Counted from the stretch's first letter, positions 5,803 through 61,289 are shown. The stretch: 64,000 nt of DNA from Escherichia coli (GCF_030384885.1 NZ_CP128615.1), one strand, 5' to 3'. Made by a program: numbers and translations. The notes: generated from the sequence alone by a model not told the origin.

Positions 5803-5909
5803 GGACAGAAACTGTCTACCGGAGCGTGGTCACTCCACATTTAAAGAAACGAGCTTTGGTAAACATACCTGTAATGACTCCATAAAATGGCGCGTCAAAC
5901 GACACCTAA

Positions 5910-7985
5910 TCAATTAACCCCAAGCGCCTTAAACACGGCATCGACGGGGTCTGCATAAAAGCTGATCTGGAATTTTGAGAACAACTCAGCAGGAACCGTT
6001 GGAATATCTGAGGCTGAGGCCATTGGGAGCAAAATACGCTTTGCGCCACTGTCCATAGCTAACTGAAGACTGCCTGCAAGATCTTGAACAGGATTGACGA
6101 CACCACCTAAAGTCATCTCACCCAAAACAACCATCTGCTCTTGAATCGGTCGGTTCATCAGAATTGAACAGAACGCAATTAATGCAGCGAGCGATGACTT
6201 TGTACTTGGCCCCGTATTGTGGAGCTCAACAACATGGAGGTGATACTCATGATCAGAAAACTTCGCCGACGCACTGATTCTATTCAGGTTACCTTTGAAA
6301 TAATCAAAGCCAACACGCACAGCTTCTTTCGCTGCGGTATTCGAACCAAGGCCAGACACTGAGTGTTTACCAGAACCAGCCATCATCTGGGTTTCATAGC
6401 GATATAACCCAAGCTGCCCAGTGCTTCCCTGAGTAACCAAGTGCACGACACCAGCGCGAGGTAAGCCCTCAGGAATTAGCTTGCTGCCACCTTGTTCCGG
6501 TACATTGATGAAGAATTCTTCTAATGAATCGTTATCGATGTAGCTAAAGTGCACATCAAAAAATTCCATTCCGCCAAGCTTTTTCAATTGCTCTTTGACT
6601 CTACGTCTAGTTTCCAGCGCATAGGTCAGGCAGGCTCTTACATCATCTTTTGTGTACTGTGCGTCGGGGTGTAGTAGCTTTAACAAGCCCGAAACAGTTC
6701 TGCGTACAGCAATTACATCACGCTGATTAAGGTTATTACCGAGTTTGAAGAACTTATCGATAGCATCCGCAAAACTTCTTTTGCGCATTTCACGCATGTA
6801 TTCAGCAAGATAGTCTGTGATTAATCCGTAACTATTGGTGAAAAACTCAGGACGCATCTTCGGTATTTCCCATCCAGGAATATAGGAATGGAAACGGTCA
6901 AAAAAAGCAGTGTCAATCATGGCTTCAGGAAAAGGTGCCAACAGATGACTGGTCTTCACCAGTGTCTCAACGCTTTGATTGATGTTACCGACGAATACCA
7001 TGGAAGCCTTCGCTTCGATTGAATCACGACCACGGGCAAAAGACCCTGACGCCATATAATCTTTCATTATTTGGACGCCGTCTTTGTCTTTAAAGTTAAT
7101 ACCCGCTACTTCATCAAAGGCGACAACATCCCACATTCCGACCAACCCAACTTGGCGCGAGCTCATGTTATAGAACAAGTTCGCCACAGTTGTTTGTCCG
7201 CCCGAGACAAGCAATGAGTTTGGTGAGCACTCCTTGTAGACATGGCTTTTACCTGTCCCTCTTGGTCCGAGCTCACAAACGTTGTAGTTGTTTTCAACGA
7301 ATGGGATCATACGAGTGATAAGATGCCATTTCACCCGATGCTCTAAGTTGGTTGGCTCCATACCCACGGAACGAAGCAACACATCCATCCACTGATCGGT
7401 ACTAAAATGTCTTCTGGTTGAAAACACCTCATCCATGTTCATGGACGGCATTTGTATCGGTTTTAAACTCATAATGGAGAAAGGTGATGTCTTCTGACCT
7501 TCCTCAAAGAAATACTGGACGGTAATAATGCACCAGATGCCGCCAGTTAATAATTTTTCGTTGTCTTGTACTATTTTGGTCGGTACAAGGGCATCCTTGA
7601 TACCCAGGTTCGACAACGCAGCTTCATAGACGTCTTTTTTCTGGTTGAGCTTAACGCTTACTTTGTCGATGATTTTAAACGTGCCGCGTTCACGGATCAG
7701 TGACTTCACTTTCTCCGCTTCATCTGGTCGGACATAGTTCTCAGCCAAGATTTTTTTTACATTATCAAGGCCTTGCATTACAACTTCGTCGTCATCGGAC
7801 GCACAATACATGCCTAGTAAATACTCAAGCACATAGACAGGGACGTTAGCGCCTTCTTTCAATTGCTTTGTCAGATCTTTTCGAACGACACGGCCTTTAA
7901 AATATTGGTTGAGCAATGCGTCTAAATCGGCGCTTTGCATCTGATTTTTTTCGTCTTTATGATCTTGTGAAAAATCAGTTGTCAT
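5910..7985 (-). CDS. brxL: BrxL (AAA+ / Lon-like protein of type I BREX)
   Basis: 691 aa; Walker A GPRGTGKSH; Lon-protease-like C-terminal domain; last gene of the BREX operon. Confidence 0.9.
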   Translation of the reverse strand: MTTDFSQDHKDEKNQMQSADLDALLNQYFKGRVVRKDLTKQLKEGANVPVYVLEYLLGMYCASDDDEVVMQGLDNVKKILAENYVRPDEAEKVKSLIRERGTFKIIDKVSVKLNQKKDVYEAALSNLGIKDALVPTKIVQDNEKLLTGGIWCIITVQYFFEEGQKTSPFSIMSLKPIQMPSMNMDEVFSTRRHFSTDQWMDVLLRSVGMEPTNLEHRVKWHLITRMIPFVENNYNVCELGPRGTGKSHVYKECSPNSLLVSGGQTTVANLFYNMSSRQVGLVGMWDVVAFDEVAGINFKDKDGVQIMKDYMASGSFARGRDSIEAKASMVFVGNINQSVETLVKTSHLLAPFPEAMIDTAFFDRFHSYIPGWEIPKMRPEFFTNSYGLITDYLAEYMREMRKRSFADAIDKFFKLGNNLNQRDVIAVRRTVSGLLKLLHPDAQYTKDDVRACLTYALETRRRVKEQLKKLGGMEFFDVHFSYIDNDSLEEFFINVPEQGGSKLIPEGLPRAGVVHLVTQGSTGQLGLYRYETQMMAGSGKHSVSGLGSNTAAKEAVRVGFDYFKGNLNRISASAKFSDHEYHLHVVELHNTGPSTKSSLAALIAFCSILMNRPIQEQMVVLGEMTLGGVVNPVQDLAGSLQLAMDSGAKRILLPMASASDIPTVPAELFSKFQISFYADPVDAVFKALGVN

Positions 7986-8001
7986 GTTTCACCTCAGCGC
8001 C

Positions 8002-10674
8002 TTAGAAAAAATCATCTTGGAATGCCAAATCAATGGTTACCGCGTATTGGCTATAACGGGTTCTCATTTCCGCATTCTCAAGAACTAATGTGTATTGAGC
8101 GTTTCTATCGAACTGGGAGCCAATAAGCTTTAACCTAGCTTCGCGAGTACGTTCATCCATCACTTTACTCACGCTATCAAAGTTAATCGTTTCACGACTG
8201 GAGACTTCATTACCTTGTGCATCGACGATATAGACATCCAACAACCGTGCGACGAAACGCTCGCCTACAGGGTCTGTCTGAATAAATCTGACCTTGTCGA
8301 TATTGTTTACTAATTTGATGGGCTGAGTGGCTGCTACAACACCTACCGGTTGTTTCTCATGTTTTGCTGCTTGTTCTTTTTGTAGCTCTCGCACATGTAG
8401 TACCGGTACGCAGACTTCCTGTAGCATCGCTCCGCCATGCACAAACTTAGCACCACCAACGAAGTGGAAGCGTTGAGCCGCTTTTGGAAGCAGGAACTCG
8501 GTATCACTTGAGCCATGAGCCGTATCGTTAATTGAGCCTTTCCAACAGGCTTCATCTGAAGGCAAGTTATTACCAACGATATAACGTTTCTTGGCTTCTA
8601 TCGCTCCAGCAGGTTTGGTTTTCAACGAGGTTTTGTCAGCCGCTACAAGTGCTTTTTGTTGGAAGAGGAAGCCATGGTCAGCAGTGATCACAACTCGGCT
8701 GCCGTTTAGACGGTTGATGACCCGCCCAACGAGGTCTTTTAGCTCTTCAATGGCACTACGACAGGCTTCAAACGTTTTCTCTTCAGTTGCTGCCTTATCA
8801 CCAATCGCATCAATGGTATCGTGATAGATATAAACGACTTCTACGTCTCGAACCTTGTCACGCCCCTCCTGGTTACTCCAGCTCATCAGTTCCTTAGAAC
8901 TCACTGCCATACCACCTACTTTTTGTAGGATGGCGTTGCGGTTGTCTAGACCCTGTGAAGAAATACCATCCACATAAACAGCCGTGCCTTGCTCTGGCTG
9001 GTAACTGAGCGCCTTATGAGGCAATAATGCCGCCATCCCAAGTTGGGTATAACTCGGCAAAACGCCCAACTGCGTAGACACCTCAGCCTTAAATCGCTTC
9101 TCGTTGTTAATGATAGCGCCAAGCTCATTCGCAATTTCAAAACGCAGGGCATCAGAGATGATCACAAACACTCGTTTTGTCTGTTTCAGACTCAGTCGTG
9201 TGCGAACTTCTTTTTCATAGAAGTCATACTGGTGCGGTACGCCAGAAATCTGCCACTTTTCAAGTAATTTTTCATTGGCCAAGTGACGATCCCATGCAAG
9301 GCCAAGCTCATACAAGTACCAGTTGGTATAAATGCTTTCGACTTCGTCGTCGAGCTGACGCAGTATGTCTGCACCTTTACTCAATACAGAGTGCACATGC
9401 TCATTGAACAAACGGTAAGCCTGGTCAAAACGATAAATGTCTGTGGTATAGGCGTCGTACATTGCTTTCGCGTTATCAAAGTGGAACCCATCCACATAGC
9501 GATTTCGCAAGTGCATTAACTCTTCAGCGTTGCGGATAGCTTCATAAATTGCGAAGTATTCTTTGCGTGACAATGTCCAGTGGCTAGAAAGACGTCTTGA
9601 TAAGACCGTATCAAACTGAACCCGGTCTAGCGCTTTACTGCTATCGAGCAAATCACGAACTAAACCACGGATTATGGCCTGTTCCACAGCTTCGAACGTT
9701 TCGCATTCGATAAGCTCAACCGGATGGTACTGCCCAGCACGAGTCGAAATTTCCAACTGTTGGCTAAGCACCTTAGAGATGCTTTCGTAGTAAGCGGCGA
9801 AAGAGCGGCTGTCGCGCCAGCTCACCATAAACGCCAAGGCTGTCGCCCGGCCTGATGCGCTTTTTAGAACATTGTTAAGCAACCAATCGCGTTCAACACC
9901 TTCAATTTGGCTCCAGAATTCAGTACAGAATAATTTCAACACGAAGTCTGAGAAGGTTGGCTCTTCAACTGTATAGCCAAAACCCTCACTCAGATATGCC
10001 CAGAGTGAGGTCTCAAGATCAAACTTTCCTAGCTGGCTCCATAAAGGTTGACCAAGGCTTTCATCTTCGATATAAGCCGCATATTCGCGTAGTAACCCAA
10101 GCAGAATGTCCGACAAAGACGCAGAATCAGCTTTTACAACCACTGCCATCATCTTTCTGTCTAACGACAGTTCGTCTTCGTTCTCAGTCACCCACTTTTT
10201 TAAACCGGCTATGCGCTGTTTATTGGCAAAAAAGCTCTGGCGCTTACGAATGTGCGTGCGAAGCGCCATTTTCGGAATACCCAGCTCATTAAGCAGCATT
10301 GAGCTGTGATCAGCAAAAAACTGCTCGCTATACAAACGCACGTCTAGCAACCAATCGCGGTCAGGCTCTGGCTCAGCGCTTGGAAAATAGATAAGGAATT
10401 TAGCTTCACGCTCATCTACTTCAATGCGTTTTTTCACTGCCAATACAGACTCATTGCCCATATTGAGGATGGTCAAATCATTTGGAAGCACCCGTGCAGT
10501 TTTATCCGCCGATTTATCGTCTGTTTCTTTTGCAAGCCCTTCTTTTGCAATAGAGAGGGCGTTAGCTAAATGCTCAAGCTCTTCAGTAAAGCTTTGCTCT
10601 GGGTCGTACCAAAACACAATGCGGCTTTGTTCAAATTTGGCAGCAACGCCTTGTGCCAGTTCACTAATCTGCAT
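8002..10674 (-). CDS. pglZ: PglZ (alkaline-phosphatase-superfamily BREX protein)
   Basis: 890 aa; VFVIISDALRFE and ITADHGF metal-site-like motifs; 1-nt overlap with pglX. Confidence 0.9.
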   Translation of the reverse strand: MQISELAQGVAAKFEQSRIVFWYDPEQSFTEELEHLANALSIAKEGLAKETDDKSADKTARVLPNDLTILNMGNESVLAVKKRIEVDEREAKFLIYFPSAEPEPDRDWLLDVRLYSEQFFADHSSMLLNELGIPKMALRTHIRKRQSFFANKQRIAGLKKWVTENEDELSLDRKMMAVVVKADSASLSDILLGLLREYAAYIEDESLGQPLWSQLGKFDLETSLWAYLSEGFGYTVEEPTFSDFVLKLFCTEFWSQIEGVERDWLLNNVLKSASGRATALAFMVSWRDSRSFAAYYESISKVLSQQLEISTRAGQYHPVELIECETFEAVEQAIIRGLVRDLLDSSKALDRVQFDTVLSRRLSSHWTLSRKEYFAIYEAIRNAEELMHLRNRYVDGFHFDNAKAMYDAYTTDIYRFDQAYRLFNEHVHSVLSKGADILRQLDDEVESIYTNWYLYELGLAWDRHLANEKLLEKWQISGVPHQYDFYEKEVRTRLSLKQTKRVFVIISDALRFEIANELGAIINNEKRFKAEVSTQLGVLPSYTQLGMAALLPHKALSYQPEQGTAVYVDGISSQGLDNRNAILQKVGGMAVSSKELMSWSNQEGRDKVRDVEVVYIYHDTIDAIGDKAATEEKTFEACRSAIEELKDLVGRVINRLNGSRVVITADHGFLFQQKALVAADKTSLKTKPAGAIEAKKRYIVGNNLPSDEACWKGSINDTAHGSSDTEFLLPKAAQRFHFVGGAKFVHGGAMLQEVCVPVLHVRELQKEQAAKHEKQPVGVVAATQPIKLVNNIDKVRFIQTDPVGERFVARLLDVYIVDAQGNEVSSRETINFDSVSKVMDERTREARLKLIGSQFDRNAQYTLVLENAEMRTRYSQYAVTIDLAFQDDFF

Positions 10675-13600
10675 TAGTTAACCTCCGGGGCCGAACCGGT
10701 AATGGCCTTAACATCAGCCAACAGATCACCAAACTTGCCGTAATTCACTTTCACGCCATCATCCAAATCCAGTGAAATACGCATATCAGCGTAGTGTTTT
10801 AGCTTGTCATCAAACTCGCGTAGTTCAACCTGTTTCTTGATTAAGGCATCCAACTCTTTCTTGAAGCGGTTCGCTTCACTGGTCGAGTCTGCCGTTTCAA
10901 TCTGCTTCTCAAGCTGCTCTGCATAAGCATCGTATTTGCCGAGTAACGGGGTGACATACTCGGTACGCATACGCGAAAGCGTGCCCTCGTTGTAACGGTG
11001 CAGGTAAACCAGGCACTCAAAAGCCTTCTGTTTGCCTGAGCTAAACAACCAATAAATAGGACGTTTTTTGTATGTCTTCAGGTGGTCTTTGTAGAATTGA
11101 GTCGATAAATAGCGGCGGATCGTCTCAAGAGCTGATTCTGATTTTTTGGGCTTTATGGCATTTAAGCACAGAGACTCTGCAACAAAATCGAGATTTTCTT
11201 GTAAGTGTTCTTCACCCCAAACAACTTGGACAAACTCGCGGAAACGATTGGTTGCGTCGTCCTTGAACCATTCTTGGTCGGTTAGGGGAATGATGCCATT
11301 TTCGTCGGCAGCAAAAGATTGATAAGCACCTTCGGCAACGAGTTTATCAAACCCATAATTACAAGCATGAGCGTAGACTAAGCCTTCACGATCAAGAGAG
11401 TAACGCCCCATCATGCAACCAATGGAGTAACTAATGAGTTCACAGGTTGTATCAGATTTTAACTTACTTAAATCAGTAGAATTTTCATATCGAAAAGCAG
11501 GGTTAGCAAATAATGATAGTGTTGAAATATCTATTGAAACCGGCACCGAAATTCCAAAATCATTGCATATTAAAGAATTAACTTCACTTTCCAAATTGGC
11601 TTGTTCATTAACTAGATTTAACTTCACTTCATTTAGAACCTGATAAGATTCAGCAATTTTGGCACGTTTTATTTTACACAGAGGCGAACATTCAAAGTTC
11701 CATGACGTTTCGTACATATCCCAATCAACCTTTGCGTTGGAAATTAAATCGCTCACCTTTTCAAACAATGCTTCTTTGTCAGCCTTATTGAAAATTGCCG
11801 GCAATGAGGCTATTTGACTCGTTTCATAGTTAAGCGTTGGCGAAATGATTTTTAACTGTTCCAGCACTACAGATGAGTTTAACTGAGCCAATAAGGCATA
11901 TTCTTCAATTCGAGAATTAAGAAATACTGATGCACCTGCAACGTCAAATATCGCTCCTTCAGGCTGCCATCTGAACGATGGAATTCCACTCGAAATTTTT
12001 GACCAAGTTACTGAGCTACGAAAATAAAATGCACCATTTTTCACAGTTCTAGTAGGAGACCCATACAAACTTTTAGCGTATGCAAATACCTCTTCACCTG
12101 CATTTTCCCAATTAATTACGTATTCCTGATTGCCATACCATTTTCTATATGAACCGCCTTTATTATATGGAAACCATTTGAATCCTGAGGATTCAGCTTC
12201 ATCTTTAGAACTAGAGTCATACATTGAGGTGTTTACTGGAACTTCATGCCATAGCCTTAAGAATCTATTATTATCACTTGTTTGACACCCAACTCTAGTT
12301 TTAGCAACTGACGATATTGGCGCGTCCATAAATGTATTTAATATTTCCTTGGCAACCCAATAAGCAATCGGACTCCCAGGAATCTTTTTGAAATCATCCT
12401 GAGCTGTCGCTGCAAATTCATTCTCTCTATTGAGCAATGCTTTTTGCTTTTCTTCTTCATTGCCATCTATCAGCCTATAAAAGGTAGGTTGATAATGATT
12501 GATGTGCTTATTTTGAATAATCCAGGCAGTAGTCTGTACAACCTCGCCACTAATCTGACTAAAAGCGCGTGCACCGAGGTGAGCCATAGTAATAAATGTA
12601 TGGTCTTCCAATAAATTGTTTCTTAGTTGCTCATAACTCGACAAGAACATCCACGATTGCATATTGATTTGAGCATTAAATCCATATTGAGAAAGCAATT
12701 TAAATGCTCGCTCCATAAAAATGGCAAACAAGTCTGATTTACTATTTGGGTATTGTTTCTTAGCAAACTCTTTCAAATCTGCATTCATTCCTTTTGCTCC
12801 CATATAGGGAGGATTAGCAATCACAGCATCGTAACGAATAGATAAAACCAAAGCCTGGTGAACAAACTCAATCAATTGCTTCGCTGCCAGCTTCTGCATT
12901 GAGTCGCCTGACTCTTGTAGCTCTACTAGCGTGCTCAGGAGCTCTTTTAGCTGTTCATGGTCATCGCTTGGTACATCAATCAATGAACCAAAGGTCTTGG
13001 CTTGAGTAAATCTTGCCAACGTTCGCTTCAGCAGTTGGTAGCGGTTGTCTGCATTGAACGAGCTTAAATCTTGCTCTTCGTCAGAGAACAGTCCTTGTGA
13101 TGTGCCGCTTTGCCAACTTCCCGATAGGTTGAGTGCTTTCCATAAGGTCGGCAGATCAATATGGTTACTTTCCTGCAATGACAGTACATTGAGTCGCACG
13201 TTACGGGTAAAAATACGCTTGTCGTCATCTCTCGCCATCATCATCAGGGCAAAGCCAGATAGCTGTGCTGCACGATCATCTATGTCCAAGCCGAAGAGGT
13301 TGTTCTCCAGGATCATCTTTGGAATGTCACGAGAGCGGAAACCACGTTCTTCGTAGATGGCTTTTAGTACGTTGTAAGCTTCAATCAGTATGTGGCCCGA
13401 GCCACAAGCGGGATCGAGTACTTTGATGGTTTCAGGTTCAATCGATTCTGGCGTAATAGCCTTTAGCTGTTGGTTAACTTCGTCAGATTGCTGCGCAGGC
13501 TCAATGTAGTATTCCATCTGGCTTTTAATGGCAGAGTCTGGGTAGGTTTGCAGCCATTGACGACCGACTGAGTTTTGTACCAGGTACTTTACAATCCAGT

Positions 13601-14342
13601 TAGGTGTAAATAGCTGAGTAGCGGCAGGAATGTCTTCACTTTTGACTACTTTTCCGATGACCTGATCTTTCTTTTCAGAAATGTAGAATTGGTAAAGCCA
13701 ACCAATCACTTCGACTTGTTGCCAGTCCTCTTCAGGGATGCCGTCTACCAATCCACGCAGAATGGAGTCGGTACGCATTAGGTTGTCTGGTAGCAGAAGC
13801 TCTGTTTCATCGTCCAATGCGTCAAATAAGAAAGGCATCGCTTCATGTAGCTTATGGCACTGGCCTAACAGCAGTTCACGATACAGCTCTTCGTCTTTGT
13901 TGCCCGCAAGCTTGAGTTCAACAATGCGAGCTCTATCTAATCCGAGTTCATCCGCAGCGTCTTGGGCATGGTCGATAATTTCAAAGCCTTTAGGGTTGTC
14001 TGGGTGCGACAAAACACGAAAACCGTGGCCTAGATAGTCATGGATTTCCATATAGCGAATAGCACACAGACGGTTGAACCAGGTATAAGCTACTTGTTCA
14101 ATAAGTTGTGCATACCCAAGTTTCTGGCTTCTGGCTACTATGCGTTTTCTGGGCTCGGCCAGTTTACCGTCAAAACTGTTACCAGCGATTTGAAGCACAG
14201 AACCTTGTAGATTCGCTTCTGCAATTTGTAGCTCGCCCTTTTTATTCGCGGTGATACCAAAGGTATTTAATCGTTTAGCTACCGCATCCATAAATTCGCG
14301 GCGCGCTTTTGGTGCGTATTTTTTAATGTTGTTCGTATTCAT
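10674..14342 (-). CDS. pglX: PglX, BREX N6-adenine DNA methyltransferase/specificity subunit
   Basis: 1222 aa; LDPACGSGHIL (SAM-binding) and VIANPPYMG (NPPY motif IV). Confidence 0.9.
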   Translation of the reverse strand: MNTNNIKKYAPKARREFMDAVAKRLNTFGITANKKGELQIAEANLQGSVLQIAGNSFDGKLAEPRKRIVARSQKLGYAQLIEQVAYTWFNRLCAIRYMEIHDYLGHGFRVLSHPDNPKGFEIIDHAQDAADELGLDRARIVELKLAGNKDEELYRELLLGQCHKLHEAMPFLFDALDDETELLLPDNLMRTDSILRGLVDGIPEEDWQQVEVIGWLYQFYISEKKDQVIGKVVKSEDIPAATQLFTPNWIVKYLVQNSVGRQWLQTYPDSAIKSQMEYYIEPAQQSDEVNQQLKAITPESIEPETIKVLDPACGSGHILIEAYNVLKAIYEERGFRSRDIPKMILENNLFGLDIDDRAAQLSGFALMMMARDDDKRIFTRNVRLNVLSLQESNHIDLPTLWKALNLSGSWQSGTSQGLFSDEEQDLSSFNADNRYQLLKRTLARFTQAKTFGSLIDVPSDDHEQLKELLSTLVELQESGDSMQKLAAKQLIEFVHQALVLSIRYDAVIANPPYMGAKGMNADLKEFAKKQYPNSKSDLFAIFMERAFKLLSQYGFNAQINMQSWMFLSSYEQLRNNLLEDHTFITMAHLGARAFSQISGEVVQTTAWIIQNKHINHYQPTFYRLIDGNEEEKQKALLNRENEFAATAQDDFKKIPGSPIAYWVAKEILNTFMDAPISSVAKTRVGCQTSDNNRFLRLWHEVPVNTSMYDSSSKDEAESSGFKWFPYNKGGSYRKWYGNQEYVINWENAGEEVFAYAKSLYGSPTRTVKNGAFYFRSSVTWSKISSGIPSFRWQPEGAIFDVAGASVFLNSRIEEYALLAQLNSSVVLEQLKIISPTLNYETSQIASLPAIFNKADKEALFEKVSDLISNAKVDWDMYETSWNFECSPLCKIKRAKIAESYQVLNEVKLNLVNEQANLESEVNSLICNDFGISVPVSIDISTLSLFANPAFRYENSTDLSKLKSDTTCELISYSIGCMMGRYSLDREGLVYAHACNYGFDKLVAEGAYQSFAADENGIIPLTDQEWFKDDATNRFREFVQVVWGEEHLQENLDFVAESLCLNAIKPKKSESALETIRRYLSTQFYKDHLKTYKKRPIYWLFSSGKQKAFECLVYLHRYNEGTLSRMRTEYVTPLLGKYDAYAEQLEKQIETADSTSEANRFKKELDALIKKQVELREFDDKLKHYADMRISLDLDDGVKVNYGKFGDLLADVKAITGSAPEVN

Positions 14343-14357
14343 ATGATCTTGCGCCTC

Positions 14358-16121
14358 TTATTCTGTCTCTACGCTGTTTGCGGGTTGTAATGCGGTTCTA
14401 ATGCGGGCAAGCAGTGTTTCCTGACGCTCGCGGTAAAAGTCCATAAACTGGTTTAGTTGTTCAGGTAATGATGTTATGGCTTGCGATTGCAGATGTGCTT
14501 GTCTTGCATTCACATCAGGCCACTGCTGCGCATACCATTCATGGGGCATTTTTTGCCGCTTCTGGTTGTTGATTGTCCCTTCCAACAGTTGAAGGTTTGG
14601 CAGCTTGTTAGATGCCTCGATGAGTTCATCTAGCTGTTCAGCTGGGACACCAACTTTTGCAAGCTTGTTACGCGTAAACAAACCTTTGGGGTAAATGTGG
14701 TCCACATGAAAGTGTCGTGAAAAATCGAATCCTGGGAACAACAAAGTCAACAAGGCAAAGGTACGCGGATTACCATAATCCAACTGCGCTAGTTCACTAA
14801 TTTCCTCTGGGTCAAAGCGCAACGATTTACCACGCTGTTGCATGGTCGCTTCAATTTTCGCTAGCGGGAAACCCGTATCACCCGATTGTTTAATGTCTGA
14901 GCGAAGCATAGTAAGCAGGGTATCCAAACCACTTCCCCAGATGCCTGACGCTTTCAACAACGACCTAATGAGCCAGTTTCTGATGCATTCTCTATCGACC
15001 GCATATTCAACCCTAGAAAGGTAGCTTGCCGTTAACTTTCGGTGGTGCAGGTAATAGGCTAACGGGAGGATGGCACTTGTTGCTCTGAGGTTTTGTGCAT
15101 TAAAACCAAAACTTGCCAGCAACTGCATTGAGAGCAATAACGCATCACGAATTGGCGTCCAGTTCTTTTCGAGAATCGCCATATTTTCCTTGTTAAAGTT
15201 CTCAACCTTAAAGCCCACGCTACCGATGTCAGAGAGCATTAAGCCTGCTTTTAAAACGAGATCTTTTGATACGTTGAATCCATCACCAACACGGTTCATC
15301 TCATCCACTAAGGCATGAATTTCTTCACGGGCATCTAACGAGCTCCACTGCGCTACGGCTATTGAAAGTAGTAAGTCTGAGTAGGACAAAGTAGTGCCGC
15401 CGCTATTCATGCGGATAAAGATATTCAGAACACGTTCAAGGCTCTGATCACTTTCTTCGTAAAACGAAATCTTATCTTTGTCATGGATAGTTCGATACAA
15501 GTGACGAAGAGTTGAGCGAGCCTCTTTGCGTTGCTCCGAGCTCAACCTAGCATCATCAGCAACTTCATCGATAAGTGCATCTTCTTCCTCTTCCATGATC
15601 CGGCCTACACGGAACCAGTATTGTTCAGATGCATCCAAAGAGGCTTTATCGTCGGTTAGGAACTCAAAGTCATACATCGACCCAGTTTCTAAGTCGGGCT
15701 GGCTTAACAGATTTAAGTGAAGCCTGCGCACTGGGAAGGCGTCATCATTGCTCCACCATTTACCTGTCAGCTTCCACGCAAATGAGCCGCGTAGGCCGAT
15801 GTTCAAAGCGGTAATCCGCTGCTGTCCATCTAGGACGGCAATGAACTCACGCTCTGGTAACTGAGTGACATTTTCACAATGGTAGTTATCTCGCTCATGG
15901 TAATGCTGCATGAACTGATAAAACTGATAGCTATGCCGGTTCTCTGGTTTTATCTTCCAGAATAGAAAGGTCCCAAACGGGTAACCTTGCAACAGGCTAT
16001 CAAATAGACGACAGATCTGTTCTGGTCGCCATACAAACTCTCGCTGGATGGCCGGTAACAGGTATTCCTGCTCAGCAACCTTGTCGAGTAATGATCTTAT
16101 TGTTCCACCCGCTTGATACAT
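14358..16121 (-). CDS. DUF262/DUF1524 GmrSD-like (BrxU-like) putative type IV restriction enzyme embedded in the BREX operon
   Basis: 587 aa; N-terminal IQREFVW...LDGQQR (DUF262/ParB-like NTPase); C-terminal HVDHIYPK...LQLLEGTINNQK (His-Me/HNH-like DUF1524). Confidence 0.8.
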   Translation of the reverse strand: MYQAGGTIRSLLDKVAEQEYLLPAIQREFVWRPEQICRLFDSLLQGYPFGTFLFWKIKPENRHSYQFYQFMQHYHERDNYHCENVTQLPEREFIAVLDGQQRITALNIGLRGSFAWKLTGKWWSNDDAFPVRRLHLNLLSQPDLETGSMYDFEFLTDDKASLDASEQYWFRVGRIMEEEEDALIDEVADDARLSSEQRKEARSTLRHLYRTIHDKDKISFYEESDQSLERVLNIFIRMNSGGTTLSYSDLLLSIAVAQWSSLDAREEIHALVDEMNRVGDGFNVSKDLVLKAGLMLSDIGSVGFKVENFNKENMAILEKNWTPIRDALLLSMQLLASFGFNAQNLRATSAILPLAYYLHHRKLTASYLSRVEYAVDRECIRNWLIRSLLKASGIWGSGLDTLLTMLRSDIKQSGDTGFPLAKIEATMQQRGKSLRFDPEEISELAQLDYGNPRTFALLTLLFPGFDFSRHFHVDHIYPKGLFTRNKLAKVGVPAEQLDELIEASNKLPNLQLLEGTINNQKRQKMPHEWYAQQWPDVNARQAHLQSQAITSLPEQLNQFMDFYRERQETLLARIRTALQPANSVETE

Positions 16122-16137
16122 AGTTATCCGTTGCCTC

Positions 16138-19100
16138 TTACTTAATTCTTACTCGGTCGCCAGCTTTGACCGCAGCAATCAGCTGCTCTCTTAAAGCGGC
16201 AAGATAGGCATCAACTTCGGCTTCACTTTCAATGAATCCGGTTGTTACTGACTTAGCCATGGCATCGGTTGAGTTAATCGTTACGGTACGTTTTGCAACC
16301 GGCTGTGGCTGCACTGGTTCAGAGGCTGGCTCAGGTGCTGGAGCTGCTTTACCGGCTTTCGCTGCTTCCTCTTCGCGTGTCTGCTGTTCGAGTTCACGAC
16401 GTCTTTGCTCAGCTTCAGCTTTTTTGCGTTGATCTTCGATAAAGCCATTCAGCAACTCATAGGCTTCGTCCTCGTAACCTTCCGCTTCAGTTTGCTCACT
16501 GATAATTTGTGGTATTGAAGAGGTCGCTTCAATACGCTGTCTGCACATTTGTAACGGGCGCAGTGCTTGGTTCTGTAATTCAGACGGTGCATGAGCTTCA
16601 GCTAGCGCTTCTTTTACACGTCCGATGCGCAGATCAACACGCTCTAAGGCATGAGTGCGTTTTTCTTCAACCAATGTTGAGTTAATTTTTGCCACCTGCT
16701 CGATAAGCGGATTAATGTGGCGCAGCTGCTCATACGGCGAGGGCATATTGTAAATGCGTTCTAATTCAGTGAGCGCTTTTAATGCTTCACTGTCTTTTTC
16801 TAACGCAGGTCTATTGGCCTTAAACTTCTCGTTCAATGCGCCAGCAAGGGCTTGCCAAGTTTGAAATTGGCTATTGTAGAAGTCATCAAGATCCTCAAAG
16901 TCCTCAGCAAACTCTTCAAGGGCATCAGCGTTTTCTAAGAATCGGGTGATAAGAGCGAAGCTTGAAGTTTGCTCAAGAATACCCGCGACCAATGCAAGAC
17001 CATCGTCAATTTGAGATTTACCTGGGAAATGGCCTGTCTGTGACTTGGTTCTGAATGATTTAAGCTCTTCATTCCAAGCCAGTAATTCATCGCGCACTAA
17101 TTCGTAGAGCTCCTTTTCACCAGAGCCGGTAAAGGTTTTTGAAAAGATCTCTTTAACAAGACCAGCAGCCTTTTTGATTTGGCGCTCGTCATGTTGCCTG
17201 ATTTTATGTACACGGATCTCACCGCGTTTACGCACGCTGGTAAACGGCTCGTAAGCTTTTTTCAACGCCAGATCTGTGCCCTGGGTACTAAAAGATAACT
17301 TTCCAGCCAAGCCCAGCCTTGCAGTGAGCAATAAGATTTCATTGTCTGGCCAGCCATACGGGCGCTTGCCGAAGTGGGCAACGATGTCACGTAAGTAAAC
17401 AGGCTCATTACGCTCGACTTTTAGCGTTACGTACTGCTCAACCTCACGCGTAGCTTCTGGGTTACATTCATCCGCTTGAAGATCCAGTCCAATCTGAGCA
17501 ATATCATCAGCAACAAGTACGGCCTGTAGCTCACGCAAAACTTCACCAGGCGTCGCCTTGAGCATGTTCAATTTAGCGAAGGTGTTTTCGATAACGTATT
17601 TGTATGCTTCTTCGACGATGGCACTTGGCGTTGCTGATTTCTTCGGTAGTTTTGTGCCGATAGCGTAAACGTCAGCCTCTGCAAACAAAGCTTCAAAATC
17701 CGTTCTTAAGCGTTTTTCACGCTCAATATTTTCCATCTGCTTTTCGCGGAGAAGGTGTTCTTGCTCTGGTCGCTGTCCTGAATTTTGTTTTAAGAATCGG
17801 TCAGTTTTTATAAAGGTTGTCAGGTCATCCCAAAGACGTTTATGTTCGCCCAGCTTGACGAGCACGCACCCATCAGCCTCAAGCGTATGATTGATGCAGG
17901 CTTGATCGTGGGAGTAATTTTCAAAGTGCGAATCCAAAGGTGAAATGACTTTAATGACTAGATCTTCCAGCGTGGTGCCATCTTTTGGATGACCATTGCA
18001 AAAACGGCTCACCGCAAAGTCTTGCTTATTAATCGGGTATCGATAGGCACGATTACCTTTCAAAATACCGTCAAATACGATTGCTGAAAGCTTGTTAGAG
18101 ACCTCTGACATTTCAACGTCAGTGTGGCGGATCTCGTTTTCAATCTCTTTTTCTTCGTTGGTCAGGAAGATAAATTCATCACCATTACGCGCAATCAGCA
18201 ATTGGCGTTCAAGACGATTCAAGCTCTCTTCAATTTGTTTACGCAGCGCAATTTTATCTGCATCGATTCGATCAATTGACAGCGTCACAAGGTTGTCTAG
18301 TGTGCTTTTGACAACGTCCACATAACGGATCAAGAAAAGAGTTTTTAGAATCTTGCCATCGAATTCTGTTAAGGAATCCAACTCACAGGCTTGGTCAATC
18401 GTTCGCTTAACCGCTGGCTCCAAAAAGCTTTCAATCGGTGCATAGAAACTGTAAAACGGGATTAACACATCAAGGCCAGAGTCCTTCATCTGTTTTGCAG
18501 CTGATTGGAAAGCATCAAGTAATGAACGCTCACCCATGGCTAAGTGCTTACCCGTCGCGCCTTTTGTTCGAATTGACTCAAACACTTTTTGAACCAGCGT
18601 GTAGTGGTAAGGCACAAACGGATAGTTGTCCACGAAAGACGGAGCGTCGGTGTAGCCCTTTAGAGACGCAGTTGTCGTTTTATCAAATGTCAGCTGGTTA
18701 CGAAGAATGTCGCCCTTTTCAGCAAACACATCGATGAGGTGTGTACGAGCTTCTTCCGTTTTGGACAACAAACGCTTTTGAATAACTTCCGAGGTATTCG
18801 AGCTCGACAGCTGCAAGCGGGTACTAAAACGCCCTTGAATTTTAGAGAAGTCCTCGCCATCGCGCTTATCCATACCACCAATGGCAGCATCAATGTCTGC
18901 CTGAGAGGTAACAACGACCCAAGCTCTGCCACCACAATATGTGCCAAGATCTTCAGTAATGGTCTGAAGCTTCAACATCATTTGTGTGTTCTTACCGATA
19001 AACTGACCGACTTCATCGACTAAGAAAAGAAGGTTACGATCTCCAGTTCGATCTAAGTATTCATTAACCCACTTACAGAAGTTTCGGATATCTAGCGGGA

Positions 19101-19815
19101 AATTGTTTTCAACCTGTTCAACCCACGCTTTGGCAGACTCTAATGATTGCTCACTGGCATGAGCGAGTGCTTCTGAAAGTTCGTCTCGATAGAAGTCATA
19201 GGCGTCACGCTCCTTTTCCCAAGTTGATTGAGTCAACTCAGCAAATTTGTCCTTGAAAGACATGTATTGATTACGCTTATCAAGCTCGCGTTCTAAATGC
19301 GCAATGTGAGGAAAATCAGCGCAGTATCCTACACGCTCATTAAAGACTTTGAGGAAGACCTTAAGAATGGCATTTTCTCGGTCATCCGTATTGGCTCGTG
19401 AATCGATGTTAAAAAGAATAACATCAGTGTCTTTGGTAACAGCGTTTTGGATATCGGCCAACAGCATGGCATCGTTGATTTTGTCTTTAAAAAACTCAAA
19501 TGCTTGACGGCCTTGGCCATCCTTTTCGACAGACTTATTTTCGAGGAGGTAAGACAAAATTTTCAGGAAGTGAGACTTACCCGAACCAAAGAAGCCAGAG
19601 ATCCACACACCAATTTTTCCTGACATTGATGCGCCACTTTGCGTCACAGATGGAACGTAAGCCTCAAAGAAAGCGCGAAAATGTCGATCTAGCTCTCGGG
19701 TTACAACATACTCATCAAGTTCGACATACACACTGTCATTGTCTTTCTGTTCCGCTTTAACAACGCCGTTAATATCACGCGTCAACTTCTTGGAAAAAAT
19801 CTGTTCAATTTTCAT
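16138..19815 (-). CDS. brxC: BrxC/PglY large P-loop ATPase
   Basis: 1225 aa; GFFGSGKSHFLK Walker A, LLFLVDEVGQF Walker B; position after brxB. Confidence 0.9.
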   Translation of the reverse strand: MKIEQIFSKKLTRDINGVVKAEQKDNDSVYVELDEYVVTRELDRHFRAFFEAYVPSVTQSGASMSGKIGVWISGFFGSGKSHFLKILSYLLENKSVEKDGQGRQAFEFFKDKINDAMLLADIQNAVTKDTDVILFNIDSRANTDDRENAILKVFLKVFNERVGYCADFPHIAHLERELDKRNQYMSFKDKFAELTQSTWEKERDAYDFYRDELSEALAHASEQSLESAKAWVEQVENNFPLDIRNFCKWVNEYLDRTGDRNLLFLVDEVGQFIGKNTQMMLKLQTITEDLGTYCGGRAWVVVTSQADIDAAIGGMDKRDGEDFSKIQGRFSTRLQLSSSNTSEVIQKRLLSKTEEARTHLIDVFAEKGDILRNQLTFDKTTTASLKGYTDAPSFVDNYPFVPYHYTLVQKVFESIRTKGATGKHLAMGERSLLDAFQSAAKQMKDSGLDVLIPFYSFYAPIESFLEPAVKRTIDQACELDSLTEFDGKILKTLFLIRYVDVVKSTLDNLVTLSIDRIDADKIALRKQIEESLNRLERQLLIARNGDEFIFLTNEEKEIENEIRHTDVEMSEVSNKLSAIVFDGILKGNRAYRYPINKQDFAVSRFCNGHPKDGTTLEDLVIKVISPLDSHFENYSHDQACINHTLEADGCVLVKLGEHKRLWDDLTTFIKTDRFLKQNSGQRPEQEHLLREKQMENIEREKRLRTDFEALFAEADVYAIGTKLPKKSATPSAIVEEAYKYVIENTFAKLNMLKATPGEVLRELQAVLVADDIAQIGLDLQADECNPEATREVEQYVTLKVERNEPVYLRDIVAHFGKRPYGWPDNEILLLTARLGLAGKLSFSTQGTDLALKKAYEPFTSVRKRGEIRVHKIRQHDERQIKKAAGLVKEIFSKTFTGSGEKELYELVRDELLAWNEELKSFRTKSQTGHFPGKSQIDDGLALVAGILEQTSSFALITRFLENADALEEFAEDFEDLDDFYNSQFQTWQALAGALNEKFKANRPALEKDSEALKALTELERIYNMPSPYEQLRHINPLIEQVAKINSTLVEEKRTHALERVDLRIGRVKEALAEAHAPSELQNQALRPLQMCRQRIEATSSIPQIISEQTEAEGYEDEAYELLNGFIEDQRKKAEAEQRRRELEQQTREEEAAKAGKAAPAPEPASEPVQPQPVAKRTVTINSTDAMAKSVTTGFIESEAEVDAYLAALREQLIAAVKAGDRVRIK

Positions 19816-19833
19816 TCGGGAGGCTCCCTGCTC

Positions 19834-20427
19834 TTAATTTTTTTTACCGTCTTCAGGCACAAGCTTGAAGGCGCGATAGTAGTTTTTAGATTCGATCATG
19901 CCGAAAGGATGCAAATCCCTTCCGCTATATTCACCCGGATAGAAAAGCACTAATGGCGTGCTACCCATAACGTCTTGCAGAGCACTAAGTAACTCATGTC
20001 CTCGGATAAGAGGCCACGCACTGCCTAAGCCTGACAGCAACACAAACTCAAGTTCTGATGGCTTATATTTGTCCGCGATATACCTTGCCACTTTCTCTTG
20101 GCTCAGAGGCCCGGCTAGTGTTTTTCGAAGGCCATCAACACCGACTTGCAATTCACGCTGGCAAGCTCGGTCGAAAAGGCCTCGCTCCTCAAGCATATCT
20201 ATCAAGACTTCAAAAATATTGAGATGGACAAAGCGGTAACCACGCTTGTTGAGTTTTTCGTCAACGTGCTTAATGTGCTCTCGTACAAGCAGTTCATACT
20301 TGGCTGGATAGTCAAATACCCAAAATCCAATTTCATTGCCCAAGCCATCGTTTTTCAAAAACTTAGGGCTTTCAATTCGTTCCAGTATCAGATCAAGCCT
20401 GGTCTGAAGAGCCTTCATATTGTGCAC
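19834..20427 (-). CDS. brxB: BrxB (DUF1788-type)
   Basis: 197 aa; canonical size and position; 13-nt overlap with brxA. Confidence 0.8.
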   Translation of the reverse strand: MHNMKALQTRLDLILERIESPKFLKNDGLGNEIGFWVFDYPAKYELLVREHIKHVDEKLNKRGYRFVHLNIFEVLIDMLEERGLFDRACQRELQVGVDGLRKTLAGPLSQEKVARYIADKYKPSELEFVLLSGLGSAWPLIRGHELLSALQDVMGSTPLVLFYPGEYSGRDLHPFGMIESKNYYRAFKLVPEDGKKN

Positions 20428-21014
20428 TCCATTACCTCAATCAAATCTTCCCGGCCCAGACGAACTAACCAGTCTTTAACTTCTGGCATTAGGTAAACAG
20501 GTTGTATTTTCTTTGTCCTGCTATCACTCAGGTAGCCACTATCAACCAGTGCCTTAATTGCGTTGTTACCCATTTTTTTGACAGTTGAGTCAGAAAAACC
20601 GCCAAGCTCAGCATATGCCCGCACTCTCGTGTCATAAAACTCAGACCATGCATCAGCGGTTAAAGAGGGTTTATAGGTGCGACGAGCTTCGGCTAAGGTA
20701 AGTCGCATAAAATAAGCGACAACCGGAGAATGAATGAGTAATGACATCATCAGCATTTGGACATAGGCACGTTCACTCGCGGCTAAAAGATCAGTCATAA
20801 ACTCATCACCCAGGCCTTCAATACGCCAACGGATTGTTCTGGCATAACGAATAGCCGTCTGACCGGATTTTTTCTGAAGAACATTTTGCTCAACGATCAG
20901 CGACTTCCACTCATCTTCTGGAAGTTTTTTCAATAGCGATTCTGCGATTATTCTAGATTCAGTTATCAATAAACTGCCTCCGATAAGATCGCCTAAATAT
21001 TCTTTTATATTCAT
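20415..21014 (-). CDS. brxA: BrxA (DUF1819-type)
   Basis: 199 aa; canonical size and position as first core BREX gene. Confidence 0.75.
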   Translation of the reverse strand: MNIKEYLGDLIGGSLLITESRIIAESLLKKLPEDEWKSLIVEQNVLQKKSGQTAIRYARTIRWRIEGLGDEFMTDLLAASERAYVQMLMMSLLIHSPVVAYFMRLTLAEARRTYKPSLTADAWSEFYDTRVRAYAELGGFSDSTVKKMGNNAIKALVDSGYLSDSRTKKIQPVYLMPEVKDWLVRLGREDLIEVMECTI

Positions 21015-21023
21015 AAATTCATC

Positions 21024-21950
21024 TCACGATTCGCTATATCCAGGAGCGAGTGCAGCATTGTCAACGCCGTATAGTGCTTCTGGATTTTTAAGTGCTAAAT
21101 GGAACTCTCGCCCATTGCTCTTACAATTCTTTGAACAATCGATATTCCATAAACGCAGTAAATATCCAGCGAACGCAGCTCTTATCTCTACACGCAACCT
21201 ATTGTTTTCCATTGCGTAGTCCATCGATACAGCTTCTGGATGTGCTAGTTTTGGATGAGGTATCAGCTCTAGCTCAACGATTCGGTTCCATTGCTTATCC
21301 CACTGAAGAGTCTCAACTTCGTCGTTAACCTCATCCTCTAACAACTCAACTTCACTTATTCTGGTTAAAACAAAATCCCTAAATTCTCTAAGCTTTCTAT
21401 CGAATGCTCGGACATGCCATCTCAAGCCATTGTCAATCAGGGTATGAGGAACTATTTGCCTGCTCCCATGACCACTCGACAATGAGGTGTACTCAATATT
21501 AATCACAGCGCGCTTATGTATGGCTTCACTAATAGCCGCTACAACTTCCAATTTCGGCTTATTGAGATGGAATGGTGCTTCACAAGCCATAGGTGGCCTG
21601 GCCTTGCCAAGAAAGCCATCACCGAACCCTTGGCTTATCGTCGCAAGAGTTCGAACAACGTCATAATCAAACAACGGCTGGAATGCGCTCGTCTTCAAGT
21701 GCACTCTGCGCTTTTCGTCATACATAACGTTGTTAGGAGCCAACTCTTTGTACCGCGCAAAATCTTGTGTTGCCACAGACGGCGCTACGCTAAATCGCTC
21801 GGTTAAATAACTACGCCCAGCTTCACCTTTAAATAACAAAGTGAAATCAATATGAGCGAGTCGTTCTCTCTGTGCTTGGCTAAGCTCTTCAAGTCCAGTG
21901 TTGTCTTGCACTGTCAGCCTCTCAATCCATCTGGGACAAGCCCTAATCAT
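21024..21950 (-). CDS. brxR: BrxR-like WYL-domain transcriptional regulator
   Basis: 308 aa; wHTH-like N-terminus; WYL-like GLRWHVRAFDRKLREFRDFVLTRI; 9 nt upstream of brxA. Confidence 0.75.
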   Translation of the reverse strand: MIRACPRWIERLTVQDNTGLEELSQAQRERLAHIDFTLLFKGEAGRSYLTERFSVAPSVATQDFARYKELAPNNVMYDEKRRVHLKTSAFQPLFDYDVVRTLATISQGFGDGFLGKARPPMACEAPFHLNKPKLEVVAAISEAIHKRAVINIEYTSLSSGHGSRQIVPHTLIDNGLRWHVRAFDRKLREFRDFVLTRISEVELLEDEVNDEVETLQWDKQWNRIVELELIPHPKLAHPEAVSMDYAMENNRLRVEIRAAFAGYLLRLWNIDCSKNCKSNGREFHLALKNPEALYGVDNAALAPGYSES

Positions 21951-22019
21951 TTAAAACTAGGAAGCCATCGATTGAATGCCATCAAGCAACCTACTTTTTT
22001 TCATTAGGTATCATAGTAT

Positions 22020-22037: not shown

Positions 22038-22166
22038 GCTATAAAAATTGGCTTGACGTTGTTCGAATGTTTCTTTTCTGGCCTTGATAGAAGCTCACGC
22101 TGGAATGCCAACTGACGCAATTCATTCTCTCGAACACGCCTAGCAACTTCTGCCTGGGCTGGTAGC

Positions 22167-22269
22167 TGATCTTGACCCTCCATCTCCGAACAGCTTTTGT
22201 ATCTTAAGTTAACGATGTCCGCTGCCGCCGGTATTCCCTCGGGGAGTGATATCCCAGCGCGCTGTGCGG
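22167..22269 (-). mobile_element. IS2-like right-end remnant (orfB 3' end + inverted-repeat-like terminus)
   Basis: Minus strand encodes ...[21 protein letters not shown] (IS2 OrfB-like C-terminus), followed by an IR-like ...GGGTCAAGATCA end at 22167. Cut by IS1 at 22270. Confidence 0.55.
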
Positions 22270-22545
22270 GTGGCTTCCATTTCCATCAGATGTCCTTCCT
22301 GCTCCGCTACTGAAGGCGTGGTGCGTAACGGCAAAAGCACTGCCGGACATCAGCGCTATCTCTGCTCTCACTGCCGTAAAACATGGCAACTACAGTTCAC
22401 TTACACCGCCTCTCAGCCCGGTACGCACCAGAAAATCATTGATATGGCCATGAATGGCGTTGGATGCCGGGCAACCGCCCGCATTATGGGCGTTGGCCTC
22501 AACACGATTTTACGTCACTTAAAAAACTCAGACCGCAGTCGGTAA
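22270..22545 (+). CDS. insA: IS1 InsA
   Basis: [43 protein letters not shown]... Confidence 0.85.
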
Positions 22546-22967
22546 CCTCACGCATACAACCGGGCAGTGACGTCATTGTTTGCGCGGAAATGGACGAACA
22601 GTGGGGTTATGTCGGCGCTAAATCACGCCAGCGCTGGTTGTTTTACGCGTATGACAGGATACGGAGGACGGTTGTGGCGCACGTATTCGGTGAACGCACG
22701 TTGTCCACGCTGGAGCGTCTTCTGGGCCTGCTGTCGGCCTTTGAGGTCGTGGTATGGATGACGGATGGCTGGCCGCTTTATGAATCACGCCTGAAGGGAG
22801 AACTGCACGTTATCAGCAAGCGATATAAGCAGCGCATTGAGCGGCATAACCTGAATCTGAGGCAGCATCTGTCAAGGCTGGGCAGGAAGTCACTGTCGTT
22901 CTCAAAATCGGTGGCGCTGCATGACAAAGTCATCGGGCATTATCTGAACATAAAACACTATCAGTAA
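22464..22967 (+). CDS. insB: IS1 InsB frame (expressed as InsAB' by frameshift)
   Basis: 167-aa ORF ...[26 protein letters not shown]... Confidence 0.85.
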
Positions 22968-24696: not shown

Positions 24697-24960
24697 ATGA
24701 AGAAGCGTTTTTCCGACGAACAGATCATCAGTATTCTCCGCGAAGCCGAAGCTGGGGTACCCGCCCGTGAACTCTGCCGCAAGCATGCCATTTCCGATGC
24801 CACGTTTTACACCTGGCGTAAGAAGTATGGCGGTATGGAGGTGCCTGAAGTTAAGCGCCTGAAGTCGCTTGAGGAAGAGAACGCCAGACTCAAGAAGCTG
24901 CTTGCCGAAGCCATGCTGGATAAAGAGGCGCTTCAGGTGGCTCTTGGGCGAAAGTACTGA
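24697..24960 (+). CDS. IS3-family OrfA
   Basis: MKKRFSDEQIISILREAEAGVPARELCRKHAISDATFYTWRKKYGG... Confidence 0.85.
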   Translation: MKKRFSDEQIISILREAEAGVPARELCRKHAISDATFYTWRKKYGGMEVPEVKRLKSLEEENARLKKLLAEAMLDKEALQVALGRKY

Positions 24961-24983
24961 CGACAGACCAGAAGCGGGAAGCC

Positions 24984-25207
24984 GTGATGCTGATGTGTGA
25001 TGCGACCGGTCTGTCGCAACGTCGTGCCTGCAGGCTTACAGGTTTGTCCCTGTCGACCTGCCGCTATGAGGCTCACCGTCCGGCTGCTGATGCGCATTTA
25101 TCAGGGCGCATCACTGAGCTGGCACTGGAGCGCAGGCGTTTTGGCTACCGTCGTATTTGGCAATTGCTGCGCCGTGAAGGGCTTCATGTTAATCATAAGC
25201 GCGTGTA
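24984..25207 (+). pseudogene. IS3-family OrfB, N-terminal fragment only
   Basis: ...ELALERRRFGYRRIWQLLRREGLHVNHKRV, then unrelated sequence. Confidence 0.75.
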
Positions 25208-61190: not shown

Positions 61191-61289
61191 TGCTGAATAT
61201 GATTCAATATCGCACGCTACTCATCCATCCCAGGATAATGAGTACATAGGTTGAAGTTTCAACACCCCCATTACGGGGGTGTTTTTTTT
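61191..61289 (+). ncRNA. candidate ~100-nt sRNA (RNA I-like antisense RNA?)
   Basis: Promoter TTGCAC (61156-61161) -17- TATTAT (61179-61184). Four stem-loops. Intrinsic terminator ACACCCCC-ATTAC-GGGGGTGT + T7 (61262-61289). Confidence 0.5.

Follow-up and report, generated by a model that had tools for sequence, protein, structure and literature searches.

BrxU, the closest described relative of the protein analyzed here, is encoded by the Escherichia fergusonii plasmid pEFER and degrades DNA carrying 5mC, 5hmC or glucosyl-5hmC, while sparing unmodified DNA and N6mA (PMC8565348). Its substrates rank in the order glc-5hmC > 5mC > 5hmC, and the arabinosylated cytosines of Mosigvirus phages (arabinosyl-5hmC) are also cut. 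Activity requires a hydrolysable NTP or dNTP together with Mg2+ or Mn2+, several other metals being less effective (PMC8565348). In the crystal, BrxU forms an intertwined dimer, with the nucleotide site taken up by the partner's linker, and ATP converts the dimer into monomers; the C-terminal DUF1524 HNH nuclease is built around D474 and H475 of a DHIYP motif. Defense is lost in the S42A/D, Q101A, R102A, D474A and H475A mutants (Picton 2021, PMC8565348). Mutants of the nuclease domain still hydrolyze ATP, which indicates that the NTP is hydrolyzed before the DNA is cut and that the two steps can be separated. The T4 protein IPI* inhibits BrxU both in vivo and in vitro. The pairing of a methylating BREX system with a modification-dependent nuclease has been published for pEFER as a "belt and braces" model (PMC8565348).

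The founding type IV enzymes for glucosyl-hmC DNA, Eco94GmrSD and EcoCT GmrS-GmrD, have in common with BrxU a DUF262 NTPase and a DUF1524 His-Me nuclease, the use of NTP and Mg2+/Mn2+, hydroxymethyl- and glucosyl-cytosine targets, and inhibition by T4 IPI*. Despite these similarities, an identity of about 13% has been reported between BrxU and Eco94GmrSD (PMC8565348); BrxU is less selective than the founding GmrSD enzymes for nucleotides, metals and modifications (5mC is among those it accepts), and it has an RLFDS motif, which EcoCTGmrSD lacks. In PADLOC, BrxU-like proteins carry the name HEC-05 (Payne et al., preprint 10.1101/2024.01.29.577857; PDLC04150-04153). The tested HEC-05 protein, which is 99.2% identical to BrxU, is embedded in another defense system and was confirmed to be anti-phage; HEC-05 was defined from genes in Hma loci, whereas the host system in the present DNA is a type I BREX. 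According to a published survey, BrxU homologues make up 15.98% of the recognizable defense systems nested in BREX loci and are among the commonest of them, and in another survey BrxU-like genes were found nested in Hma and type I R-M loci as well. PARIS (ariAB), present in the BREX loci of Salmonella LT2 and D23580, is likewise a second defense system nested in type I BREX as a back-up layer, but it consists of unrelated ABC ATPase and TOPRIM proteins that sense the anti-restriction protein Ocr, not DNA modification. We take it that in the Salmonella StySA locus PARIS occupies the slot between brxC and pglX.

The DNA analyzed here, hereafter the window, is a 64,000-nucleotide stretch from Escherichia coli. 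It contains a complete BREX operon, all on the same strand, in the order brxR-brxA-brxB-brxC-brxU-pglX-pglZ-brxL, which is identical to the gene order in pEFER. Each of the type I BREX genes has its own family-specific Pfam match above the cut-off, and the genes are located as follows.

21024..21950, minus strand: brxR, WYL-domain transcriptional repressor (Pfam WYL; function according to PMC9122601)
20415..21014, minus strand: brxA, DUF1819 (Pfam BrxA, 6.9e-39)
19834..20427, minus strand: brxB, DUF1788 (Pfam BrxB, 9.6e-36); the RefSeq start lies 9 nt further in, at 20418
16138..19815, minus strand: brxC, P-loop ATPase of 1225 aa (Pfam BREX_BrxC_4th, BREX_BrxC_helical and BREX_BrxC_wHTH; RefSeq annotation of an identical plasmid)
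14358..16121, minus strand: brxU ORF, 587 aa (584/587 against PDB 7P9K and pEFER WP_000283751; GmrSD_N, HEC-05 and motifs)
10674..14342, minus strand: pglX, N6-adenine methyltransferase and specificity factor of 1222 aa (Pfam Eco57I, N6_Mtase and MmeI_Mtase)
8002..10674, minus strand: pglZ, 890 aa (Pfam PglZ, 2.8e-72; 875/890 identical to pEFER PglZ)
5910..7985, minus strand: brxL, Lon-like protease/ATPase of 691 aa (Pfam BrxL_ATPase, BrxL_N and Lon_C)

The ORF between brxC and pglX comprises 587 codons. A plus-strand reading of the same positions was rejected: its translation is riddled with stops, which places the gene on the minus strand. When the protein was aligned to pEFER BrxU (NC_011743, 18711-20474), as the initial annotation had proposed, 584 of the 587 residues were identical without a single gap, and a search against sequences of solved structures returned 7P9K and 7P9M, both of which are BrxU of pEFER, with an alignment spanning residues 1-587 (E=0) in which just three positions mismatch. 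The two proteins thus share their length, their slot between brxC and pglX, the flanking genes (brxR, brxA, brxB and brxC on one side; pglX, pglZ and brxL on the other) and the residues that have been tested experimentally. pEFER is typed as IncR, and so is NZ_CP024857.1, a plasmid with an island 100% identical to that of the window. The gene at 14358-16121 is therefore almost certainly an allele of brxU, that is, a GmrSD-family type IV enzyme embedded in the type I BREX of IncR-type multidrug-resistance (MDR) plasmids. The identity and specificity of the protein had initially been regarded as unknown; it is BrxU itself, for which substrates, cofactors, structure and an inhibitor have all been published.

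The motifs that first drew attention to this ORF are all in place. IQREFVW occupies residues 25-31, DGQQR residues 98-102 and HVDH residues 472-475; HVDH runs on into DHIYP, and N485 and N519 follow. The nucleotide-binding motif RLFDS is found at 38-42. The window protein retains Q35, R38, S42, D98, Q101, R102, H472, D474, H475, N485, N519 and E528, and every residue proven by mutagenesis (S42, Q101, R102, D474 and H475) stands at the same position as in pEFER BrxU. Identity, gene order and motif integrity, as well as the distribution described below, are thus direct observations on the window brxU.

Profile searches gave matches to GmrSD_N, HEC-05 and 7P9K that are far above chance. The Pfam GmrSD_N model (DUF262, PF03235) covers residues 9-253 with E=4.6e-34 and 118.7 bits against a cut-off of 33.2 bits, and the top PADLOC match, the HEC-05 model PDLC04151, covers residues 2-580 with E=6e-234. 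Of the two domains that the initial annotation expected to be recovered by profile models, DUF262 was thus found, whereas DUF1524 fell short of its threshold: the Pfam GmrSD_C model (PF07510) reached 17.0 bits with the whole protein and 20.1 bits with the C-terminal domain alone, both below the gathering cut-off of 23, and it stayed below the cut-off even with permissive E-values and the isolated domain. Because this model is sub-threshold, the DUF1524 assignment rests on the HVDH/DHIYP...N motif and on the crystal structure of a 99.5%-identical protein, and given that motif and that structure, the low score does not weaken it. NCBIfam yielded no informative model for the window BrxU, only sub-threshold DGQHR noise.

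The gene is already known, in that structure, biochemistry and genomic setting have been published for a near-identical protein. Little is new here, since the gene, its structure, substrates, inhibitor and regulator, and its complementarity with BREX were described for a protein from which this one departs at 3 of 587 positions; the checks suggested in the initial annotation, namely alignment to BrxU and GmrSD enzymes, assays with T4-type phages and tolerance of PglX methylation, have likewise been published for pEFER BrxU. The practical gain is one of annotation: what RefSeq calls a "DUF262 domain-containing protein" is in fact BrxU. In every record inspected, this was the RefSeq/PGAP label (e.g. 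WP_061350061.1), and no paper was found under the protein accessions WP_061350061, WP_061350060 or WP_000283751.

In the window allele, three residues are changed relative to pEFER BrxU, the crystallized protein. Two of the changes (written pEFER to window) fall in the DUF262 domain, D63H and K141Q, and one, S582N, falls in the C-terminal tail. The BrxU allele of pECO-6dfa has N582, as in the window, but D63 and K141; neither of these proteins has H63 or Q141. It is conceivable, although quite unlikely, that H63 and Q141 are adaptive, altering susceptibility to injected IPI*-type inhibitors or shifting the range of modifications that are cut; if this were true, near-identical plasmid BrxU alleles would differ in the T-even phages that they stop. 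A broader form of the argument is that any of D63H, K141Q or S582N alters substrate range, dimer-monomer cycling or IPI*-type sensitivity to the point that the pEFER data are not transferable. The presence of substitutions relative to the crystallized protein, two of them in neither of the compared alleles, could be taken in its favor, as could the report that IPI* acts differently on different GmrSD homologues. We nevertheless consider such divergence very unlikely, as the two proteins are 99.5% identical, positions 63, 141 and 582 lie outside the named motifs and the residues found to matter, and the 99.2%-identical homologue HEC-05, which was tested independently, also defends. On the reading that the window gene is an ordinary brxU allele, we infer its activity, specificity and regulation from the literature on the pEFER protein. 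The initial proposal that a DUF262-DUF1524 type IV enzyme would cover modified phages that escape BREX has been demonstrated experimentally for pEFER BrxU and, at 99.5% identity, probably applies here.

The position of brxU between two core genes of the operon, and the tightness of that arrangement, might suggest that BrxU is an integral subunit on which BREX relies for its methylation or exclusion activity, perhaps as the nuclease that has been missing from BREX. In line with this idea, no PLSDB plasmid of this BREX lineage turned out to lack the gene between brxC and pglX: an artificial junction of the brxC 3' end and the pglX 5' start was searched against PLSDB plasmids, an empty slot being defined as one place that covers at least 80% of this fusion query, and 0 records were returned. 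From this result, brxU looks fixed in this BREX lineage. In pEFER, however, the integral role has been refuted, because deletion of brxU leaves both the PglX-dependent GCTAAT N6mA methylation and BREX defense intact, while the double deletion of brxU and pglX abolishes all defense; furthermore, BrxU expressed alone from pBAD confers the full BrxU phenotype. Canonical type I BREX also lacks brxU (PMC8565348), and Hma and type I R-M loci, too, contain embedded BrxU-like genes. An integral role is hence exceedingly improbable. The notion that the protein belongs to another DUF262 defense family and responds to another trigger (for instance, as one of the SspE-like nicking enzymes, which sense phosphorothioates, or as a DndB/ParB-like protein) has practically no chance of being correct, for the weak PADLOC matches to SspE, NsnA, PD-T4-2_A and HEC-06 (E 1e-8 to 5e-3) extend over the first ~100 residues and reflect the shared DUF262 core only (the SspE models align only to residues ~15-107, with E=3e-5 to 5e-3, and not over the full length), the HEC-05/BrxU models span nearly the entire protein, no ssp or dnd genes are adjacent, and full-length identity with BrxU excludes it.

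The brxU allele is separated from its neighbors by two short junctions, both of which were read from the sequence.

16122..16137, minus strand: brxC-brxU junction, 16 nt, GAGGCAACGGATAACT
14343..14357, minus strand: brxU-pglX junction, 15 nt, GAGGCGCAAGATCAT

The first lies between the brxC stop (16140-16138) and the brxU ATG (16121-16119), and the second between the brxU stop (14360-14358) and the pglX ATG (14342), so that the placement of the gene between brxC and pglX with gaps of 16 and 15 nt holds as initially described. In both junctions, a GAGG Shine-Dalgarno-like element stands directly behind the TAA. A scan for consensus sites placed neither a promoter-like nor a terminator-like site in either junction on the minus strand; relative to the shuffle expectation, 13 promoter-like sites were counted against 23.7 expected and 20 terminator-like sites against 18.4. 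A separate promoter or terminator for brxU was accordingly rejected, since the consensus sites are not above chance and none falls in the minus-strand junctions. In pEFER, reporter fusions have shown that only PbrxR and PbrxA are active and that both are repressed by BrxR, and no promoter was detected before pglZ (PMC9122601). The junction spacing, the ribosome-binding sites and the lack of promoter or terminator signals, together with these reporter data, fit a single transcript from brxR/brxA to brxL that includes brxU, and the co-transcription with BREX that had been suggested from the gaps alone is thereby supported, though by inference.

The same 8-nt string, TAAGAGGC, which consists of the stop codon and GAGGC with the ribosome-binding site, opens both junctions (16134-16140 and 14354-14360, minus strand). 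This shared string would fit a cassette insertion of brxU that duplicated or re-used the translational coupling signal between brxC and pglX.

Further differences from pEFER lie at the upstream end of the island. BrxR of the window is identical to that of pEFER at 298 of 308 positions (10 substitutions), and its operator has a counterpart in the window.

21986..22012, minus strand: counterpart of R-BOX1, the BrxR operator downstream of PbrxR (by alignment to pEFER 12820-12846; operator coordinates from PMC9122601)

This operator reads GATACCTAATGAAAAAAAGTAGGTTGC in the window and GAAACCTACTGAAAAACAGTAGGTTGC in pEFER. The two versions differ by 3 substitutions in 27 bp, with almost identical flanks, and the substitutions make the inverted repeat less perfect, chiefly in its IR1 arm. 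Similarity to pEFER stops ~215 nt upstream of brxR (window ~22165-22967), after which an IS1-family transposase gene follows, and the accessory genes brxS and brxT of pEFER are missing upstream of the window brxR. A later paper from the group that studied pEFER describes brxS and brxT as needed for BREX methylation. Because these two genes are missing and R-BOX1 carries three substitutions, the island as a whole, with brxU among its genes, may be regulated and expressed differently than in pEFER.

Taken over from pEFER, the following mechanism would account for the role of brxU in the window. At rest, BrxU would be a homodimer of intertwined protomers, the nucleotide site of one being obstructed by the linker of its partner, and binding of an NTP or dNTP at the RLFDS/DGQQR site of the DUF262 domain would drive the protein to monomers. 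Hydrolysis and re-association on DNA would in turn unlock the C-terminal DUF1524 nuclease with its His-Me (DHIYP) motif, which, in the presence of Mg2+ or Mn2+, would degrade DNA containing 5mC, 5hmC, glucosyl-5hmC or arabinosyl-5hmC to a smear. Neither unmodified DNA nor the N6mA that PglX produces would be cut. The enzyme is presumed to be independent of the BREX proteins and sufficient alone, although transcribed with BREX from the BrxR-repressed promoters PbrxR and PbrxA. BREX would stop phages with unmodified DNA, and BrxU would stop the T-even-like phages that cytosine hypermodification hides from BREX; T4 IPI* may in part counteract BrxU.

The initial annotation mentioned a comparable arrangement for one plasmid; the arrangement turned out to be more widespread. 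With tblastn, BrxU was found at an identity of at least 99% on 60 PLSDB plasmids, and among the matches listed, the next ones had ~50% and 35% identity. On the E. coli plasmids NZ_CP024857.1, NZ_CP080127.1 and two others, the 16.1-kb island (window 5900-22000) recurs with 100% identity. PLSDB contains 93 plasmids that match it, and their genera include Escherichia, Salmonella, Klebsiella, Enterobacter, Providencia and Moellerella, among others. Among complete E. coli genomes, 59 of 5426 carry the island, at 45 plasmid and 19 chromosomal places. The BREX-BrxU island thus moves essentially unchanged on MDR plasmids across the six named genera, from Escherichia to Moellerella, and this spread matters for predicting the failure of therapeutic phages, including T-even-like phages with modified cytosines.

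In contrast to the conserved remainder of the island, PglX of the window is a mosaic relative to that of pEFER: residues 1-515 and ~1000-1222 are near-identical, whereas ~516-1000 are heavily diverged, resulting in 74% identity overall. The diverged codons correspond to about 11340-12795 on the minus strand. Compared with PglX of pECO-6dfa, the divergent block covers ~661-1000. In Salmonella PglX, the target-recognition domain has been mapped to 662-849 and the spacer helices to 850-960, and the divergent block of the window protein coincides with these two elements. On this basis, at least three specificity alleles exist in one otherwise conserved island. The motif of pEFER PglX is GCTAAT; judging from the swapped block, the BREX motif of the window is probably a different one. 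PglZ, which is otherwise 98% identical to its pEFER counterpart, shows a 5-residue insertion and several substitutions at residues 46-60, within a short acidic and lysine-rich N-terminal stretch.

The rest of the window is a mosaic MDR plasmid with vapBC, IS110, IS1, IS903, Tn3-family elements with tet(A) and strAB, and a group II intron, on a backbone with IncR-type rep, parAB and umuDC. An Rfam scan of the whole window gave no match within the BREX island; outside it, an IS1222-type ribosomal frameshift element (IS3-family) was detected at 24927-25044 (plus strand), and the small RNA UptR has a copy at 61192-61283 (plus strand). The group II intron was matched at 49052-49277 on the minus strand (Rfam group-II-D1D4-6, 186.6 bits), where it adjoins the umuDC-like backbone genes. 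The ORFs beside it (47460-49047, minus strand) likely encode the reverse transcriptase/maturase, and the maturase appears to be split into parts of 336 aa and 200 aa.
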